In this document: positions 9,762 through 50,291 of the stretch, piece by piece | How the letters are laid out: each line of letters starts with the position of its first letter | Position numbering within the stretch: the stretch's first letter is position 1 | NCBI GenBank assembly: GCA_963833985.1 | Contig: CAWIAD010000001.1 | Span: 1,952,001 to 2,016,000 of the forward strand | DNA from: an uncultured Planctomycetaceae bacterium | Lineage (GTDB): Bacteria > Planctomycetota > Planctomycetia > Isosphaerales > Isosphaeraceae | Direction: 5' to 3' | DNA: 64,000 bases | Translations under genes and position numbers: made by a program | Notes under the pieces: generated by a model | The model's input: only the letters and a program-made list of their open reading frames with translations | What the model was told of the DNA's origin: nothing | Databases searched by the model: none

Positions 9762-10128
9762 GGGGGCGAACCAGGATCGACCGGATGACCGAGGTGAACG
9801 GCGGCGTGCCGAGGTTGGTCAGCAGGCCTCGTAAAAAGCCGACCGAAACTTAACTGCCGACACTTACGTGCCGCAGTACCGTCTCGCTGCCTAAACCACA
9901 GCAACGGCCTCGCGCCGGGCCTTCTCCCGAGAGGTTCGGCCGGGGACGACAATTCGGGATCGCCTGAGCCAAACCTCCCGTTGCGGCCCGGGTTAAACTC
10001 ATGATGGGATAAGCCGAAGGGGACCCTGCCGGTCGGGGCCCCCAGGCCGACAATCAAACGATCGGCTACGCACGTAGATGCTCTCACTGACGCTTCTCGG
10101 GACGCGGGTGCAATTCCCGCCGCCTCCA
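9762..10128 (+). ncRNA. ssrA: tmRNA; predicted tag (A)ADTYVPQYRLAA encoded at 9856-9894
   Basis: 5' GGGGGCG pairs with 3' CGCCTCC-A and gives the G3-U70 alanine identity pair; T-arm GCGGGTGCAATTCCCGC; short ORF ending LAA-stop after TAACT; follows smpB. Confidence 0.93.
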
Positions 10129-10420
10129 CTACATGTGATGTAAGTTACTCCAGATAATACGTTTACGTCGATCAGAGACACTGCTTGGCTTCCCGACACA
10201 TCCAATCCTCGGCAAGATTACCGGCCGACGGCGAACGACGGAACGTCCTCTGAACTTTTGGTTCGAGACGTTCGTGTTCTTGGCCAGGACGTCGCTGTTT
10301 GCCCCCGGCGTGGCGAATGGCACCGGAACTCCAGCGCTCCCGCGGCGCGAGCATGGGACTCCCGCTTGGCGGTAGAACATCTCGGCGCAACGTTGCGGAA
10401 TCGAGGCAAGGTGCTGGGAT

Positions 10421-43169: not shown

Positions 43170-43838
43170 ATGGCGCGAATCATCCTTGGAGTGACGGGCT
43201 CGGTGGCGGCCATCCGGACGCCTGAACTCTTCGCGGCGCTGCGAGCCCAGAAACATCTCGTGCGCGTGGTCGCCACCGAGCCGTCGCTTTACTTCTTTGA
43301 TCCCGGCCAGCTTGCCGCCAAGAAGGAAAAGCCGGTGGACGACGAGCCGGCCGACCCCGTCTACCGCGACCGCGATGAATGGCCGGGCCTGCGCTACCGC
43401 CGCGGAGATCCTGTCCTGCACATCGAGTACCGCAACTGGGCCGAGCTGCTGGTCATCGCTCCGCTGGACGCCAACACCCTGGCCAAGCTAGCGCTCGGGC
43501 TGTGCGACAACTTCCTGACCTGCCTGTTCCGCGCCTGGGACTTCTCAAGGCCCGTCATCCTGGCCCCGGCCATGAACACCCTGATGTGGAACAGTCCGCT
43601 CACCGGTCGCCATCTCGGGCAAGTGCTGATGGATCGCGGCGGGCTCGCGGCGCTGCCGGAAAACTGGGACCTGGAATCCGCTCCGGAGCACTTCGCGCGT
43701 CATGCCCCGCGGGTCGTGCTCATCCCTCCCCAGGCCAAGGAACTTGCCTGTGGCGATGTCGGCATGGGTGCCATGGGCGAAGTCTCGACGATCGCCGAGG
43801 TCGTTCGCCGCTGCTTTGAAACGGAGCCAGTCAAGTAA
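43170..43838 (+). CDS. coaC: Stand-alone phosphopantothenoylcysteine decarboxylase-like HFCD flavoprotein
   Basis: ILGVTGSVAA, LHI, APL.ANTLAK.A.G.CDN.LT, PAMN..MW and LACGD.G.G.M motifs; no CoaB domain. Confidence 0.8.
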   Translation: MARIILGVTGSVAAIRTPELFAALRAQKHLVRVVATEPSLYFFDPGQLAAKKEKPVDDEPADPVYRDRDEWPGLRYRRGDPVLHIEYRNWAELLVIAPLDANTLAKLALGLCDNFLTCLFRAWDFSRPVILAPAMNTLMWNSPLTGRHLGQVLMDRGGLAALPENWDLESAPEHFARHAPRVVLIPPQAKELACGDVGMGAMGEVSTIAEVVRRCFETEPVK

Positions 43839-44031
43839 AGGCTTACCGCCCGCCGCCAGCCAGTTTTTTCCCGCCACTGTTCCTGTCGCCACCCTGCTGG
43901 ACCGGCTGGAAAACCTCACATCCTGCATCGGCACGCACCCGGCTCGCTGCTGAATTTGAGCAGATCCGCAGAAGTCTTTTGGCAGGATTGCAGTTCGCTT
44001 GCCCGGGGGCTGAGGGCCCTGCCTGACCGCT

Positions 44032-44062
44032 CTCCTTGTGGGGTACGATTCCAATCGTGCCA
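44032..44062 (+). repeat. REP-like palindrome, copy A
   Basis: CTCCTTGTGGGGTACGATTCCAATCGTGCCA; inverted relative to the copy at 48135-48166. Confidence 0.75.
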
Positions 44063-44260
44063 TTCCTGGTCCATCAGATAGAAGAAGTGACACCATGTAG
44101 AGTCGAGGTGTGGCGCGGTGGGCTCGAGTCGATGGCTCGGCTGGGCCTCGTTTCCACACCCCGCTCATCAAACTGGACGGGCGGTTTTCCCGCATCCAGC
44201 TTTCGGACAAGGCTTGTCTCATCGGTTGAGTTCACACGTTCGCTCACGAAACCATCGCGG

Positions 44261-44860
44261 CTAGGTTCGTTGCAGCTGGTAAAGATGCAACTCCTGGTGC
44301 AGGTATCTGTCAGGGTAGCGTCTGAGCCCCTGACCCGGCACCTTGAACTTCGCACACAACCACTGACGTACCCGGTAGCGGACGTGGTGGTTGACTTGGC
44401 GATAGGCTGGGCTCACCGTTCCGATGCGAAAATAGTTGGACCAACCGCGTAACTTGCGATTGATCCGACCAATCTGCATCTCGACGTCCTGTCCAGTGGT
44501 CTGGCGCGTCGTCATCGCACTGATCTCGCTGCACAGCCGAATGATCTTCTTCCGCGATGGGCGTGACCCTATGTAGGATCGGCCCGTTCGTCGGTCGTAG
44601 TTCCGGCCGAGGGTATAACCCAGAAAGTCGAACGTCTCCTCAGGCAGGTGGCACAGCCGCGTCTTGGTCTCGTTCACCGTTAACTTCAGCCTGGACATCA
44701 TCTTCCGCATCACCGTCATGGCCTCTTCGGCCGTGCCGCGACAGCAGATGACGAAGTCGTCCGCATAGTTGACGATTCGCGCGACCAGACGCCGCTCGTG
44801 TCCACCAGTCTTCCATCCCTTCACAAATCGTCGCATGTAGATGTTGGACAACAATGGTGA
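44261..44860 (-). pseudogene. ltrA: Group II intron RT/maturase, C-terminal part (no endonuclease domain)
   Basis: SPLLSNIYM, YADD, LKLTVN..KT, FDFLGY and IN..LRGW.NYF motifs. Confidence 0.92.
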
Positions 44861-46514
44861 GATCACGCCCCCAACAATGTTGCGAACTACGTTGTTGGGG
44901 GCCTTTCTCAAAAGGGGACGGACTGACCCGATACACGATGCGGACCTCCTGCTCGTCGATCTCGACCTTCTTCACCAAGGCCCGAACCACCTCCCGTCGC
45001 GTGGCCCAGTCCGGCTCTTGCAACCCTTGCGAGACGCGACGTGCGAACTCCTCCAACTGACCGATCACCAGTCGCAATTCCGCCTCTTGGGCGGCCTCGC
45101 CGATTCGTTGTCGATGCTCCTCCGCCAATCTCGAGAGGCGCGTCCTTGCCGCCGAGATCCGGGGCTCGAACTCCGATTTGTCGAGCAACCCGTCGCCGTA
45201 AGCATCGATTAATCGAGAAATCATCTTTTTCACATTATTTATCAATTTGCCGAGATGCTCCACCTCCTGATTCGGCCCGCCCTGGGCACCCTGCAGCCGC
45301 CGCTCGTACTCCTCCCGGACCCGCTCCGGCTCGGACAGGAGACCTCGTAAGTCCTCCCAGACGGCAGCGTCAAGGATATCGGTGCGGATCTGCTTGTTCC
45401 AGCAGAGGCGCTGCCCGCCGAAACGATAGGCGTCAGAGCCCGTGCAACGGTAGTACGCGTAGCGGACCCTACCCTTGCCCTCGAACGCGGCTCGGCTCGT
45501 CGGCTTGCCGTAGCAGCCGTAGCCGCAGCGCTTGCAGACGACCAGGCCCTGGAGCAGATATCGGCCACCGCCGGGCCGGTCGCGACGGCGTTGCCGGTTC
45601 TCTTCAAGCTGGGCCTGGACAGCCAGGAAGAGGTCTTCGCTCACCAGCCCGGGGACTTCAATGAAGATTTGATCTTCCGAGGATGTATCAACCCGTGAGA
45701 CCGGTCGCCGGGAGTGTTCGGGGCGGCCTCGCTGCGGGCGGAGGCGTTGAGGTTTGAACTCACCTGAGCGCGTCTTGCCGAAGGCCGCGGTCCCCTTGTA
45801 GGCAGGGTTCTTGAGGATCAACCAGACCGTCGCGCGATCCCAGGCCGATTTCCCGGTCCGCGTCGGGATACTGTCGCGCCGGAGGCGTCGGCACACCTCG
45901 CCGATCGAGCACCGTTCCTGACCCACCCATTCGAAGATCTTCCGCACGACCCGGGACTCTTCAGCGAGGACCTGATAACGCGCCTCGCCACCTCCCTCGT
46001 GCTTGCCGATGTAACGGTAGCCGTACGGCGCGCCGCTGAGGACGTTGACCGAACCGCGGCGGGCGGCGTGTTGCTTGCCCCTGCGGCAACGCTCCATGAT
46101 CTTGGCGCGCTCGTATTCCGCGATCATTCCCTGGACCTGAAGCAGCAGGTCGGCTTCCGGACTGCGGCCGACGGGGTTGCGCAAGAAGACGACCTCGACA
46201 CCGCACCGGATAAGTTCCTCAAGGATCAAGACCTGATAGGCATACTTGCGTGAAAGTCGATCCGGATCGAGCATATAGAGGCGGTCGATGGCTCCAGCGG
46301 CGGCTTGGTCCCGAAGTCGCTCGAGTGCCGGTCGGGCCAGGATGTAACCGCTGACGCCGTCGTCCACGAAGTGCAGTTCGGGCTCGCATTCCAAGCCATC
46401 AGTGGCGATCCGCTGAGTGACCGCCTCGAGCTGGCTGGCGATCGTGTCCTCCTTCTCCTGCTGCTCCCCCGAAACCCGGGCGTAGAGCGCCACGCGGAGA
46501 TTGTCCGTGATCAT
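44640..46514 (-). CDS. Large serine recombinase (resolvase, recombinase and zinc-ribbon domains)
   Basis: ALYARVS catalytic Ser, DRLSR, IAEYER, PYGY, IL.NP.YKG and LL.GL..C..CG...YYRC motifs; last ~74 codons lie outside the element. Confidence 0.95.
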   Translation of the reverse strand: MITDNLRVALYARVSGEQQEKEDTIASQLEAVTQRIATDGLECEPELHFVDDGVSGYILARPALERLRDQAAAGAIDRLYMLDPDRLSRKYAYQVLILEELIRCGVEVVFLRNPVGRSPEADLLLQVQGMIAEYERAKIMERCRRGKQHAARRGSVNVLSGAPYGYRYIGKHEGGGEARYQVLAEESRVVRKIFEWVGQERCSIGEVCRRLRRDSIPTRTGKSAWDRATVWLILKNPAYKGTAAFGKTRSGEFKPQRLRPQRGRPEHSRRPVSRVDTSSEDQIFIEVPGLVSEDLFLAVQAQLEENRQRRRDRPGGGRYLLQGLVVCKRCGYGCYGKPTSRAAFEGKGRVRYAYYRCTGSDAYRFGGQRLCWNKQIRTDILDAAVWEDLRGLLSEPERVREEYERRLQGAQGGPNQEVEHLGKLINNVKKMISRLIDAYGDGLLDKSEFEPRISAARTRLSRLAEEHRQRIGEAAQEAELRLVIGQLEEFARRVSQGLQEPDWATRREVVRALVKKVEIDEQEVRIVYRVSPSPFEKGPQQRSSQHCWGRDLTIVVQHLHATICEGMEDWWTRAASGRANRQLCGRLRHLLSRHGRRGHDGDAEDDVQAEVNGERDQDAAVPPA

Positions 46515-46879
46515 GGTTTGTCAAACCCCCCCGACCTTGGACTGGATAGTGTGGACCACAGTCGCGTGGTTGCGGCTGGGTCGCGGCCGATCCAGGCGCT
46601 GCGAAACGACCGGGATCAAGACCTGATATGCACGCGCGATCAATTGCTCCTGAAGCCGAGTGAACTCGAAGTGGCGGGTGACAGGAGGACTGAACGTGGG
46701 CCTCCGTGGGGACGTGATCATGTCGACTCCTCCTCTCCGAGAGCGCGGCCGCCAGCCTGCCTTGGATCGGGATCGAGTCGGGGCTGCCATCCGTGCCCGT
46801 ACTTCGGTCGAAGCCGCGATCTGGAAATGACAGAGTCAGGAATCAGGGACGATTTTGCAACATTGTTGGGGGCGTGATC
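44861..46879 (-). mobile_element. Minimal serine-recombinase integrative element inserted in the intron RT gene
   Basis: Perfect inverted ends GATCACGCCCCCAACAATGTTGC (44861-44883 and 46857-46879); GATC present at both junctions; removal restores the RT frame. Confidence 0.92.
46521..46721 (-). CDS. 66-aa ORF upstream of the recombinase (possible directionality or regulatory factor)
   Basis: Strong GGAGAGGAGGAG RBS; MITSPRRPTF...FEFTRLQEQLIARAYQVLIP; ends 6 nt before the recombinase start. Confidence 0.7.
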   Translation of the reverse strand: MITSPRRPTFSPPVTRHFEFTRLQEQLIARAYQVLIPVVSQRLDRPRPSRNHATVVHTIQSKVGGV

Positions 46880-47574
46880 GGTGCACCTTGCGGTGTACCC
46901 ATCCCCTGGTCTTTATTCCGGGTCGTTCGATGGCGCTGCCCCTTCCCGTCGGTTTCTTCCACCGGTGTTTCCAGCCACATCTTGATCAGCCGCAGGACGC
47001 GACCGTCGCTGATGCGCCGTGACGCCGATTTCATTAACTCGGAATGGGGTATGCTATCGAAATATCCAGATAAGTCCGCGTCCACCACCTCGGTGTGCCC
47101 CGTCTTGAGCAGCCGTTCGACTTCGCGGACGGCGTCCAGGGCGCTGCGCTCCGGGCGGTAGGCGTGTTGTTCCGGCTCCAGGTCGGCCTCGAAGATCGGC
47201 TCCAAGACCAGCACCGCAGCCATCTGCACCACACGATCCTTGATGCAAGGAATGCCCAGCGGCCTTTGCTTGCCGTCCCCTTTGGGGATGTACACGCGCC
47301 GCACCGCCTGGGGTTGATACGTCTCCTTACGAAGTTGTTCCGCCAGTTCGTCCAGCCATCGTTCCTTCCCGGACGCCTCGATGTCGGCGAAACTCTGGCC
47401 GTCGATCCCCGGCGCGCCGCCGTTGGCACGGCAGCGTTCGTAGGCGAATCCCAGAACGTCACGTCGATAAATCTTGTCGTACAGGACGTAGAACCGATAG
47501 TTGGGCGCGTTCTTCGCTTTGGTGTGCAACGCCGTCTGCAACTTCCCGACCTTCAGTGGAGGTGATAGACTCAC
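46876..47574 (-). pseudogene. ltrA: Group II intron RT/maturase, N-terminal part
   Basis: GAPGIDG, RRVYIPK, RPLGIP...DR..Q, DADL..YFD.IPH and GTPQGAPI motifs; truncated at the GATC junction. Confidence 0.93.
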
Positions 47575-48134
47575 GCCAATCTCCCGGCTGTCTGCCGCTT
47601 GTTGCGTTGACCTTGAACCAAGGCCCCTTCCCTCGACCGGAGTTACCCGGCGTCGACGGTACTACGGGCCTCTCCGCCACCCCAGGCAGCCCGGCCGGTC
47701 CCTCGCGGGCGTCCGGTTGAGGGTCACGCGCCCTCACCGCTTGGGGTTTCCCGTGTTGTGTTGATCTCCGTGTGCCGACATGCCGTCGTCAATACCCCGG
47801 TGGCCCGCTGGGTTCTGATCGCTCGTGGGGCGGCCTATTCCAACCGTTTCCCTTTCATCCCCAGCGACGGCGGCCTTCCCCATATTCCAGCAAGGTCGGC
47901 GACCACATTGGACTTTTCGAGGCCTGCTCAACGTTCACTCGCGTTACGGCCTGTCGGTTCGCTGCATCGCCAAGCGACACATCTGTCTCGAAGGCTCCGA
48001 CGGTTTCGTCTCCTCCACCGCCGCTCCGATAGCTACCGGCTGGAGCGACCCAGTTGCCGGGTGGGAGTTACACCCACTGAAGACCAACACCTTTCCACGG
48101 CGCACGGGAGTCGTGTCCCACGAGGTGATTGAAT

Positions 48135-48166
48135 TGACACGATTGGGTATCGTGGCCCACAAGGAG
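48135..48166 (-). repeat. REP-like palindrome, copy C
   Basis: Minus strand reads CTCCTTGTGGGCCACGATACCCAATCGTGTCA, similar to copy A and to the intron-split copy. Confidence 0.75.
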
Positions 48167-48437
48167 CGGCCTGCCGGTCATCCAGGATCGCATCAACCTG
48201 CTGAATGCCTGTCAAAGAACGATTGCGAACCTGCTTAGACTTTCTTTCAAGTTGTGCCGATGAGCCGAGTCTCGCCGGAGAAATCGGTAACACCGGCATT
48301 TTCTCTCCAGCCAGCCGAGCCACCGCGCCGATTCAACGGGTGGCATGGAGCGCGAAAGCTTCTCCGTTCCGCGTTTTGCAGGCAGGAACCTGCATGCAAC
48401 CGCGGTCAGAATGAATTCGGGGAGGGCGAGCCTCGCG

Positions 48438-50291
48438 ATGAGAACCATCAGGGTTCTTCGGTACGCCTCGACGTCCGCCGTTCAGATCGCGTGCTTGCTT
48501 GCCTTGCAACCCTGCGCGAACGGCCAGGAGGCTCAGGCCGCGCCACACGAGAATGCACAGCCCCCCGGTGCGGCTCCCTTCCGCGACGACATCAATGATC
48601 GCCTCCGGCGCATGGAGGAAGCGAACAACAAGCTGCTCCGCCAGTTTGACAGGATCCTCAAGCAGAACGATGACCTGTCGCGCGCCAACCACGAGCTTTC
48701 CAGGGAGAACAAGACGCTTTCCACGAAATTCACGGATATGTCCAGAAAGCTGGACGATCTCGAAAAGAAGCAGAAAGAAGCGAAGGAAAAGAAAGAAAAA
48801 GAGGACCAGGAGAAAAAAAACAAGGAAGAGAAGGATAAGTCGGAAAAACAGGGGGGAGGGTCGCAAGATAAGGGCGGCTCAGAATTTGAGGAGGCCGGCC
48901 GAAGATCGGGCGACGCCGAATCAGGTGGGCATGCCCGGGGCGGCGGTCTTGATCGGGGCCGGAACGCGCAGCTTGTCGGCAATCGGAACCTTGGTAAGCT
49001 GCCCTTGACGGTCCGGTACAACTACGAGCACGAAGGTCTGCAATTCACCACCGACGACGACGAGCTTTCGCTGAAGATACGCGTCATGCTGCAGGCCGAC
49101 TGGCGGCAGTACCAGCAGGCGAATTCCGATCCGGTGTCCAGCGGTTTCTTTCTGCCCCGAGCGCGTTTCTATTTCACGGGGCACATCACCCGGCCCATCG
49201 AATACAACATCTCGTTTCAGCGCTCGTACAACACCTTGAACCTGCTCAACGCATTCGTCAATTTTAACTACGACCAGCGAGTCCAGTTCCGCTTTGGACG
49301 CTTCAAGACACCGTTCACCTATGAATTCTTCAAGCTTCACGTCTGGCAGCTCATGGCACCGGAACGCTCTCTCTTCACCGACAATTTCCAGGGCGGCCGG
49401 CAAATTGGCTTCATGGGCACGGGGGACCTGCTTGATCGCCGCCTGGAGTACGCGGCCGGCATCTTCAACGGGCCAAGGCGGTCGTTCACGGACTACAACA
49501 GCTCCAAGGACTTCATGGCACTGCTCAACTTCACGCCCTTCGAAAACCAGGAGAATTCGCCGCTCCGCGGCCTGAATTTCGGCGGGTCGGTCGATTATGG
49601 CAACCAGACCAACCCGCTCACGCCGGTTGCGCTCAGGACGTCGTCCAATCCCTCGGAAGAGACTCTCGACGGCAACACAGCCGTCAATAACGCTGCGGTG
49701 CCTTTCCTGATATTCAACTCCAACGCCCGCGAAGTGGGCCTGCGCGCCCTGTGGGAGCTGCACACCGCCTATTACTACAAGGGGCTGTCGCTCATCGGTG
49801 CATGGGATAGCGGCTTCGACAGCTACGCCCTGAGCAAATCCGCGAGCTCCAGCGGCTTCAGCGGCAGCGCCCTGAGCTCCAGCGCCGGCCCGACCGGCCG
49901 GCCGGTGCGCATCCCCATTAATGGCTGGTTCGCGCAGGCAGGCTACCTGCTCACCGGCGAGACCCTGATCGACCGTACGGTGATCGACCCGCTGCGGCCC
50001 TTTGACCTGCGCCGCGGCCGGGTCGGACCCGGAGCCTGGGAGATCACCGGGCGCTACAGCGCCCTGGCGCTCGGCAGCCAGGTCTTCACCGGCGGATTTG
50101 CCGACCCCAACCTCTGGACGAACCGGGTTCAGATGGTGGACGTCGGCCTCAACTGGTATCTGAACCGATGGATGAAGATCTACTTCGACTGGGAGCACGC
50201 GATGTTCGCCGAGCCGGTCCTCTACAAACCGGGTCCGAACCTGCAACGGACCAGCGACCTGTTCTGGCTGCGCATGCAGATCTACTTCTGA
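48438..50291 (+). CDS. OprO/OprP-type porin with coiled-coil N-terminal region
   Basis: Signal peptide; F.LPRAR.YF.G, GRFKTPF.YE, GAWEI..RYS.L and GLNWYLN motifs; terminal Phe. Confidence 0.85.
   Translation: MRTIRVLRYASTSAVQIACLLALQPCANGQEAQAAPHENAQPPGAAPFRDDINDRLRRMEEANNKLLRQFDRILKQNDDLSRANHELSRENKTLSTKFTDMSRKLDDLEKKQKEAKEKKEKEDQEKKNKEEKDKSEKQGGGSQDKGGSEFEEAGRRSGDAESGGHARGGGLDRGRNAQLVGNRNLGKLPLTVRYNYEHEGLQFTTDDDELSLKIRVMLQADWRQYQQANSDPVSSGFFLPRARFYFTGHITRPIEYNISFQRSYNTLNLLNAFVNFNYDQRVQFRFGRFKTPFTYEFFKLHVWQLMAPERSLFTDNFQGGRQIGFMGTGDLLDRRLEYAAGIFNGPRRSFTDYNSSKDFMALLNFTPFENQENSPLRGLNFGGSVDYGNQTNPLTPVALRTSSNPSEETLDGNTAVNNAAVPFLIFNSNAREVGLRALWELHTAYYYKGLSLIGAWDSGFDSYALSKSASSSGFSGSALSSSAGPTGRPVRIPINGWFAQAGYLLTGETLIDRTVIDPLRPFDLRRGRVGPGAWEITGRYSALALGSQVFTGGFADPNLWTNRVQMVDVGLNWYLNRWMKIYFDWEHAMFAEPVLYKPGPNLQRTSDLFWLRMQIYF

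Follow-up and report, generated by a model that had tools for sequence, protein, structure and literature searches.

A class F-like group II intron at a fixed base of a dispersed palindromic repeat in a planctomycete, with likely guide-directed retrohoming

The analyzed window comprises 64,000 nucleotides (nt) of an uncultured Planctomycetaceae bacterium (assembly GCA_963833985.1, contig CAWIAD010000001.1, positions 1,952,001 to 2,016,000). On its minus strand it holds a group II intron at 44097..48105, which is 4009 nt long including a nested recombinase element and 1994 nt without it. The intron interrupts a short GTGG-tagged palindrome of a dispersed family, and 13 copies of it were found in the genome. 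Its sequence features point to a recently multiplied, endonuclease (En)-less, class F-like intron that sits at a fixed base of this palindrome and likely reached its sites by retrohoming guided by RNA-DNA pairing.

Intron, nested element, and host repeat at the locus

The intron begins with GUGCG at 48105 and ends with CUCUAC at 44097. Rfam models matched domains D1-D4 with 98.9 bits and domain V/VI with 41.2 bits, and the group II hallmarks are present, namely the GUGYG 5' end, the AY 3' end, the AGC triad of domain V, and the bulged A of domain VI. Domain V (44170..44202; all intron features lie on the minus strand) combines the triad with a 5-nt GAAAA loop and a 2-nt CC bulge, and domain VI (44100..44166) carries the bulged A at 44103, position -7. 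The open reading frame (ORF) of the reverse transcriptase (RT)/maturase, which lies in domain IV, is split within the PQGAP motif by the recombinase element, so that the window copy can yield no complete RT as long as the element is in place. The 5' part of the frame, up to PQGAP, occupies 46877..47574, and the 3' part, with YADD, the X domain, and no En domain, occupies 44261..44861. The RT/maturase of an element-free copy matches TIGR04416 with 356 bits (cut-off 300). No promoter-like site was found at window positions 43700-48500. A second, unrelated group II-type RT with ~40% identity is encoded at C2:4725768-4726874.

The large serine recombinase element (44864..46876, minus strand) spans 2013 nt plus a duplicated AT core and is bounded by terminal inverted repeats. 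It carries an 89-aa ORF at 46521-46790 and the recombinase ORF from 46514, and its excision in silico yields the sequence of the element-free intron copies. Ten of the 13 intron copies hold it in the identical RT codon, seven in forward and two in reverse orientation and one at a contig break, while two sites outside introns bring the number of places in the genome to 12. The old intron copy described below retains a remnant of a related element (81%), and two relatives carry one at the same site. A silent single-nucleotide polymorphism (SNP) 16 nt from the core occurs in all seven forward copies and is absent from the two reverse and two empty copies; other SNPs among the intron copies are mosaic. 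These patterns would fit spread of the loaded intron, repeated insertion, and gene conversion alike. A further level of nesting was observed in one recombinase-loaded intron copy (L274), where a DDE transposase insertion sequence (IS; PF01609 + PF13808) is inserted in the 3' end at C2:2147541-2148825.

Joining the exons on the minus strand gives CCTCGTGGGACACGACTCCC|ATGGTGTCA, a third copy of the palindrome that also lies on either side of the intron. The 5' half of the occupied unit (48106..48121, minus strand) contains intron-binding site (IBS) 2, GGAC, at 48115-48118 and IBS1, ACTCCC, at 48106-48111, the latter with 4/6 pairs, and the 3' half (44088..44096, minus strand) contains IBS3, the A at 44096. 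Copy A (44038..44062, plus strand, with the repeat starting at 44034) is inverted relative to the occupied unit and belongs to the GGGT subtype without IBS2, while copy B (48135..48160, minus strand, with the repeat reaching 48164) is an empty unit of the GGCC subtype. The locus as a whole is a composite repeat (43959..48235, minus strand) similar to a miniature inverted-repeat transposable element (MITE) or a bacterial interspersed mosaic element, which measures ~230-490 bp when empty. It is composed of a fixed left arm (~48168-48235), a variable palindrome array, and a fixed right arm (~43959-44030), and its ends form imperfect terminal inverted repeats. The genome contains 31 left-arm and 34 right-arm matches, and many palindrome units sit inside such composites. 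Tested as a MITE, the composite showed no consistent target-site duplication, no transposase flanked by its terminal repeats, and no autonomous partner, and it gave no Rfam match above the gathering score. The right arm also holds a degenerate half-palindrome that became an intron target on one occasion.

The consensus palindrome is a GTGG-tagged hairpin with an 8-bp stem and a 4-nt loop, and the intron sits at the 3' edge of this loop. The window's own occupied palindrome is a poor hairpin with a 5-bp stem. With at most five mismatches to two 25-mer consensuses on both strands, 164 empty units were counted in 67 clusters, compared with 0 in one strand of the base-shuffled genome, and an exact-pattern search gave 80 matches compared with 0 for the reversed pattern. 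The structural features of repetitive extragenic palindromes (REPs) of the GTAG/GTRG family are present, with a GTRG tag at the hairpin foot, many copies, and inverted dimers or clusters. An open frame of at least 200 codons crosses 80 of 161 palindrome units and 275 of 300 random positions in a crude stop-to-stop test. A preliminary description of the locus, made from the letters of the window, had reported the flanking copies, the third copy rebuilt by the exons, the motif UGGAAU at two intron positions, and the cut within the hairpin loop, and had proposed a dispersed repeat family and a nest of REP, intron, and recombinase element, all of which were confirmed here. The exact palindrome pattern was found in one of 100 other genomes of the family, many of them incomplete, and there as a single copy.

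The description had also advised looking for an associated RAYT gene. No cognate RAYT/TnpA-REP gene was found to be flanked by this repeat: 0 of the 7 PF01797 genes in the genome (96% complete) had a palindrome unit within 2.5 kb, and these seven Y1-transposase genes have repeats other than this palindrome. Among further tblastn matches, one has a palindrome unit ~2.3 kb away, beyond another IS-like gene. The TIRtron arrangement, a TIRYT gene flanked by inverted repeats, was likewise not found for this palindrome. An HUH-like gene family with ten or more copies escapes PF01797 (e.g., C2:4965336-4965890, C2:1522266-1522796, and C1:2895354-2895908), and some of these genes have purine-rich runs with GGACA motifs upstream and tandem repeats downstream.

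Intron copies and the pairing of guides with targets

Twelve of the 13 intron copies are 99.4-100% identical, one of them being split across two contig ends and counted as one, and one is an older, deleted copy at 95%. Given this near-identity, the spread of the intron appears recent. Fidelity to the site is high: the exons of 12 of the 13 copies rebuild the palindrome, a check that the preliminary description had proposed, and all 12 interrupt it at the identical base. The thirteenth insertion lies in the right arm of a ~270-bp composite repeat, with full pairing (5/5, 6/6, U-G) and no palindrome hairpin. The exon +1 base is A in eight copies, G in two, and T in three. By the same crude frame test, an open frame of at least 200 codons crosses 4 of the 13 intron sites. 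Two copies have open RT frames; one of the two departs from the other copies at two residues.

Unconstrained folding of domain I, proposed earlier as the way to confirm exon-binding site (EBS) 1, was uninformative (z -0.87), and the guide assignments therefore rest on covariation. Relatives were drawn from loci L008-L233, where 83 intron starts (76 unique) passed a pattern search and 72 had enough sequence to be aligned; loci in which the start or the EBS1-stem pattern was missing were left out, and of the 72 introns several share a genome. The alpha motif GUCGCU (48044..48049) pairs and covaries with alpha-prime, AGCGAU (47818..47823). Delta-prime was searched by covariation across the aligned relatives and was not located because delta is nearly invariant.

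For EBS1, the strongest mutual information of each exon position from -1 to -6 is with intron nt 217-222, which correspond to UGGAAU at window positions 47889-47884 within the stem-loop GCCGACC...GGGAAGGC. Pairing averages 4.75 of 6 Watson-Crick pairs compared with 1.79 after shuffling (maximum 2.31 in 1000 shuffles; n=72), and at least five pairs form in 51 of the 72 introns, among which 42 distinct EBS1 sequences occur. The other UGGAAU (47837-47842, nt 264-269), which had been put forward as EBS1, was rejected: with a mean of 1.42/6 pairs compared with 1.53 shuffled (n=45), it pairs at chance level, and it is identical in 34 of 45 relatives regardless of target. By the covariation test it is a conserved motif of a structural hairpin, and its match to this palindrome is a coincidence as judged from the alignment. 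Exon +1 covaries with nt 314, the U of EBS3 at 47792, and the two are Watson-Crick partners in 41 of 47 relatives. At the 12 palindrome sites of this genome, IBS1 pairing is 6/6 in five, 5/6 in four, 4/6 in two, and 2/6 in the old copy, and all four sites with 5/6 have a U-G wobble at -1.

Covariation of exon positions -12 and -13 points to nt 193-196, the EBS2 core GUCC at 47910..47913, with 2.92/4 pairs compared with 2.02 shuffled (maximum 2.36 in 1000 shuffles). Ten of the 14 introns with GUCC follow GGAC, one follows GGTC, and three follow neither, while all nine introns with GACC follow GGTC or TGTC. In the host genome, GGAC stands at -13 to -10 in 13 of 13 occupied sites versus 50 of 164 empty units, an enrichment with a Fisher p of 1.7e-6 at the 12 REP sites. 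Copy A, earlier presented as a 6/6 target match, belongs to the GGGT subtype, which is the commonest with 65 units, lacks IBS2, and is never occupied. The choice of subtype in this genome tracks EBS2, which accounts for it on the sequence data. Two subtypes of one repeat, with and without IBS2, form a natural test, in which 13 of 13 insertions follow EBS2.

A single homing event, or a few, might have been followed by duplication of composites with the intron inside, or by gene conversion. The right arms of the window composite and of the composite at C2:1391320 are 99% identical over 138 nt, and the mosaic sharing of SNPs among copies would also fit such a course. Four copies (C2:6449421, C2:5372397, C1:2833550, and C1:3096926) nevertheless have no adjoining composite arm and lie in unrelated flanks, one copy is inserted inside a composite arm itself, and occupied composites are not mutual nearest neighbours (3/7 per arm; permutation p 0.23 and 0.18). 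Duplication also leaves the covariation of guides and targets across genomes unexplained. As a general account it is largely refuted and we regard it as quite improbable, although it may hold for one or two pairs of copies.

Related introns, their targets, and the proposed route of spread

In a tree of 37 intact RTs, this intron falls into a group of 14 with support of 100/97. All 14 RTs of this clade are associated with EBS2 of GTCC, GACC, or GTCT, compared with 0 of the 23 other RTs, and the 25 aligned introns with EBS2 of that kind carry 15 different EBS1 sequences. The named relatives are mostly Planctomycetota, with some from other phyla. Five target motifs were each counted in five genomes, chosen mostly for carrying the intron, with reversed-motif controls of 0-1. 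The counts were 51, 9, 6, 3, and 1 for the first motif, 21, 20, 16, 2, and 0 for the second, 10, 6, 4, 1, and 1 for the third, 117, 114, 28, 4, and 2 for the fourth, and 26, 20, 13, 8, and 0 for the fifth. The motif GGGGWSA was present at 21 of 25 targets versus 0 of 47, a count that is partly circular with EBS2 and was therefore not used as independent support.

These counts bear on the possibility that the intron targets a 10-base motif irrespective of repeats, REP copies being merely where insertions survive. In agreement with it, 35 of the 67 pairing-competent sites in the genome lie outside the repeat, and outgroup introns with other EBS2 sequences are mostly found in non-repeat or AT-rich DNA. 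Yet the clade contains at least five different combinations of EBS1 and EBS2 that are each matched to a multicopy repeat of the host, which is unlikely without selection for such targets, and we consider this alternative very improbable. Its homing steps are the same as those of guided retrohoming to the repeat, and what separates the two is solely the question of whether the match is adaptive.

The target motifs of the relatives fit the TIRtron consensus GGGGWSAS, and several of them occur as inverted repeats on the two sides of Y1 transposase genes (e.g., G006:C1295, G133:C20, and two genes of this genome). In one genome (G020), such a repeat immediately upstream of a Y1 gene holds two introns, an arrangement that is uncommon overall. 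Guides appear to change readily: two introns of one genome with near-identical proteins differ in both EBS1 and target, and in the genome G007 three introns (L039, L040, and L041), two with almost identical RTs, have three EBS1 sequences and lie in different repeat variants. Across the clade, EBS2 seems to stay on the GG(A/T)C head common to the repeat families, and EBS1 to change quickly. The preliminary description had seen in this lineage an intron homing to a dispersed REP family; this stands for the palindrome, which appears to be mostly intergenic, and 12 of the 13 copies here, while the lineage is not confined to one family and its relatives are retargeted to several. A wider and more tentative reading is that the class F-like clade is a specialist parasite of palindromic repeats driven by HUH transposases, with EBS2 locked on the GG(A/T)C head, EBS1 reprogrammed by point changes for each new family, and repeat homing as a heritable strategy alongside terminators and attC sites. 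It would include the possibility that the intron here also retrohomed in trans as a 4-kb RNA together with its serine-recombinase parasite, as might be suggested by the linked SNP in the seven forward copies and its absence from the four other scorable ones.

In several relatives (L077 at G009:C21, with matches in G010, G003, and G011), a ~1.9-kb insertion without a match to the recombinase interrupts the intron at nt ~91, and many others break near RT codon 172. Four loci (L046, L056, L026, and L061) hold short related copies of ~710-780 nt with intact ends and apparently no RT ORF. Elsewhere in the window, a tmRNA gene was identified at 9762-10131 (Rfam RF00023, 134.9 bits).

For the window intron, retrohoming would proceed with EBS1 UGGAAU reading exon positions -6 to -1, EBS2 GUCC reading GGAC at -13 to -10, and the U of EBS3 reading +1. 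By analogy with RmInt1 and RmInt2 (PMC5894124, PMC4615759), the intron may reverse splice into single-stranded DNA at the replication fork, with the nascent strand as primer. The RT for the window copy could be supplied by excision of the recombinase element or in trans by the two element-free copies. The repeats, if mostly intergenic, would offer dozens of tolerated sites, and selection would favour guides that match such repeats.

Several observations weigh against this account. Splicing and mobility of the intron are predicted from its sequence, and no joined exons were found among the contigs of four sequencing runs; a screen of reads considered 20 runs, none with half of the words. In one DNA contig precisely the 2015-nt element is absent, which an element-free copy would produce. 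The GC skew of the genome is flat and delimits no replichores against which a strand bias of insertions would show. The window's own site and one other pair with EBS1 at only 4/6, and the old deleted copy at 2/6. The relatives are not independent, with several per genome, and some of their 5' ends, placed by pattern, may be shifted by 2 nt. Local repeat structure at the site occurred in 10 of 24 clade members versus 11 of 43 others and separates the two weakly. Finally, 1 of the 35 pairing-competent sites outside the repeat is occupied versus 9 of the 32 inside (p 0.005), and with 34 of 35 outside sites empty, base pairing alone may not suffice. This comparison is confounded, because most outside sites are probably in genes, and the empty sites could stem from selection against gene insertions, from contacts of the protein with flanking bases, or from how accessible the hairpin is.

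The last of these explanations leads to an alternative in which pairing is needed and, in addition, the hairpin of the repeat, or single-stranded DNA made there by an HUH transposase, is recognised or renders the site accessible, in the manner of class C introns. The excess of occupied sites inside the repeat, the cut at the loop edge in this genome, and the Y1/HUH genes flanked by related targets would all fit. Against it, the thirteenth copy and several occupied units fold poorly, and the intron has EBS2 as well as a full 6-bp EBS1. Among relatives, the place of the cut with respect to the palindrome varies, falling at different points in stems or in unpaired repeats, and this argues against a reading of hairpin shape. 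A Y1 gene lies within 1 kb of 1 of 21 clade sites versus 0 of 35 others (profile built from 19 proteins), and the empty sites are accounted for just as well by purifying selection acting on gene insertions. We consider such recognition unlikely, and RNA-DNA-guided retrohoming remains the preferred account.

Under guided retrohoming, a clade that re-aims its guides at dispersed palindromes would show by what means target saturation is avoided by an En-minus intron, and the speed at which guides evolve. Other selfish repeats seem to serve the intron as safe places to land.

Class assignment and comparison with known systems

The RT is 51% identical to that of Ni.ha.I1 (g3, former class F), 36% to B.th.I3 (g2), and 30% to Sr.me.I2 (g1), and is closest to Ni.ha.I1 among these three reference groups. 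The RNA features given for IIE/IIF introns (PMC3753933) are present, including the 5-nt domain V loop, alpha-prime at the tip of a stem-loop, and the lack of an En domain. These sequence features mark the intron as class F-like and endonuclease-less. Class C (IIC) was ruled out by the 6-bp EBS1, the presence of EBS2, and the insertion inside the palindrome.

Ni.ha.I1, D.a.I1, Ge.ur.I1, and Pe.th.I2, of class F/g3, likewise have no endonuclease, a length of ~2 kb, a 5-nt domain V loop, alpha-prime in a terminal loop, and the same EBS1 stem motif, whereas repeat targeting is not part of the descriptions compared (PMC3753933, PMC3552965). EBS2 of class F type was described as dispensable for splicing in vitro, its importance for homing being only proposed (PMC3753933). 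Natural site choice here, in contrast, tracks EBS2, which bears on the question of the role of EBS2 in the homing of IIE/IIF introns.

Reviews give homing sites, terminators, and attC sites as the three target modes of bacterial group II introns (PMC4424553). Class C introns at terminators and attC sites share the many intergenic sites tied to palindromic DNA but have no EBS2, pair over 3-4 bases, and insert after the hairpin (PMC4424553, PMC7923331). The analogy to them drawn in the preliminary description does not carry over to a class F-like intron with EBS1 and EBS2 and no sign of a reading of hairpin shape. IS1397, IS621, ISPpu9/10, ISPa11, and ISRm22 also use REPs as a dedicated landing pad, yet they are DNA transposons, and in P. 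putida two of nine group II intron copies are listed as REP-associated in a table (PMC1525189). The host repeat shares the GTGG tag, the 8-bp stem, the 4-nt loop, and the inverted dimers or clusters with GTAG-type REPs and TIRtron repeats (PMC3733652, PMC6006769) and matches the TIRtron consensus GGGGWSAS at seven of eight positions (PMC3733652). It differs from them in that no cognate Y1 gene flanks it and many of its units lie inside a composite with fixed arms (PMC3733652, PMC6006769).

IS targeting of REPs, class C targeting of hairpins, and RmInt2 in IS repeats are already published, while a description of a group II intron clade homing to REPs or terminal inverted repeats was not found in a literature search mostly without subscription papers. 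The closest precedent in the sources compared is RmInt2 of Sinorhizobium meliloti in the inverted repeats of ISRm17, which is likewise En-minus and reaches many sites by pairing with the repeats of another mobile element. Also common to both introns are relaxed EBS2 pairing over ~4 bases, a linker of greater length between IBS1 and IBS2, and U-A as the EBS3 pair (PMC4615759, PMC5894124). RmInt2 differs in belonging to class D and in targeting the end of an autonomous IS, whereas the intron here targets an orphan family of short palindromes and its entire clade is retargeted to different families of this kind (PMC4615759, PMC5894124).

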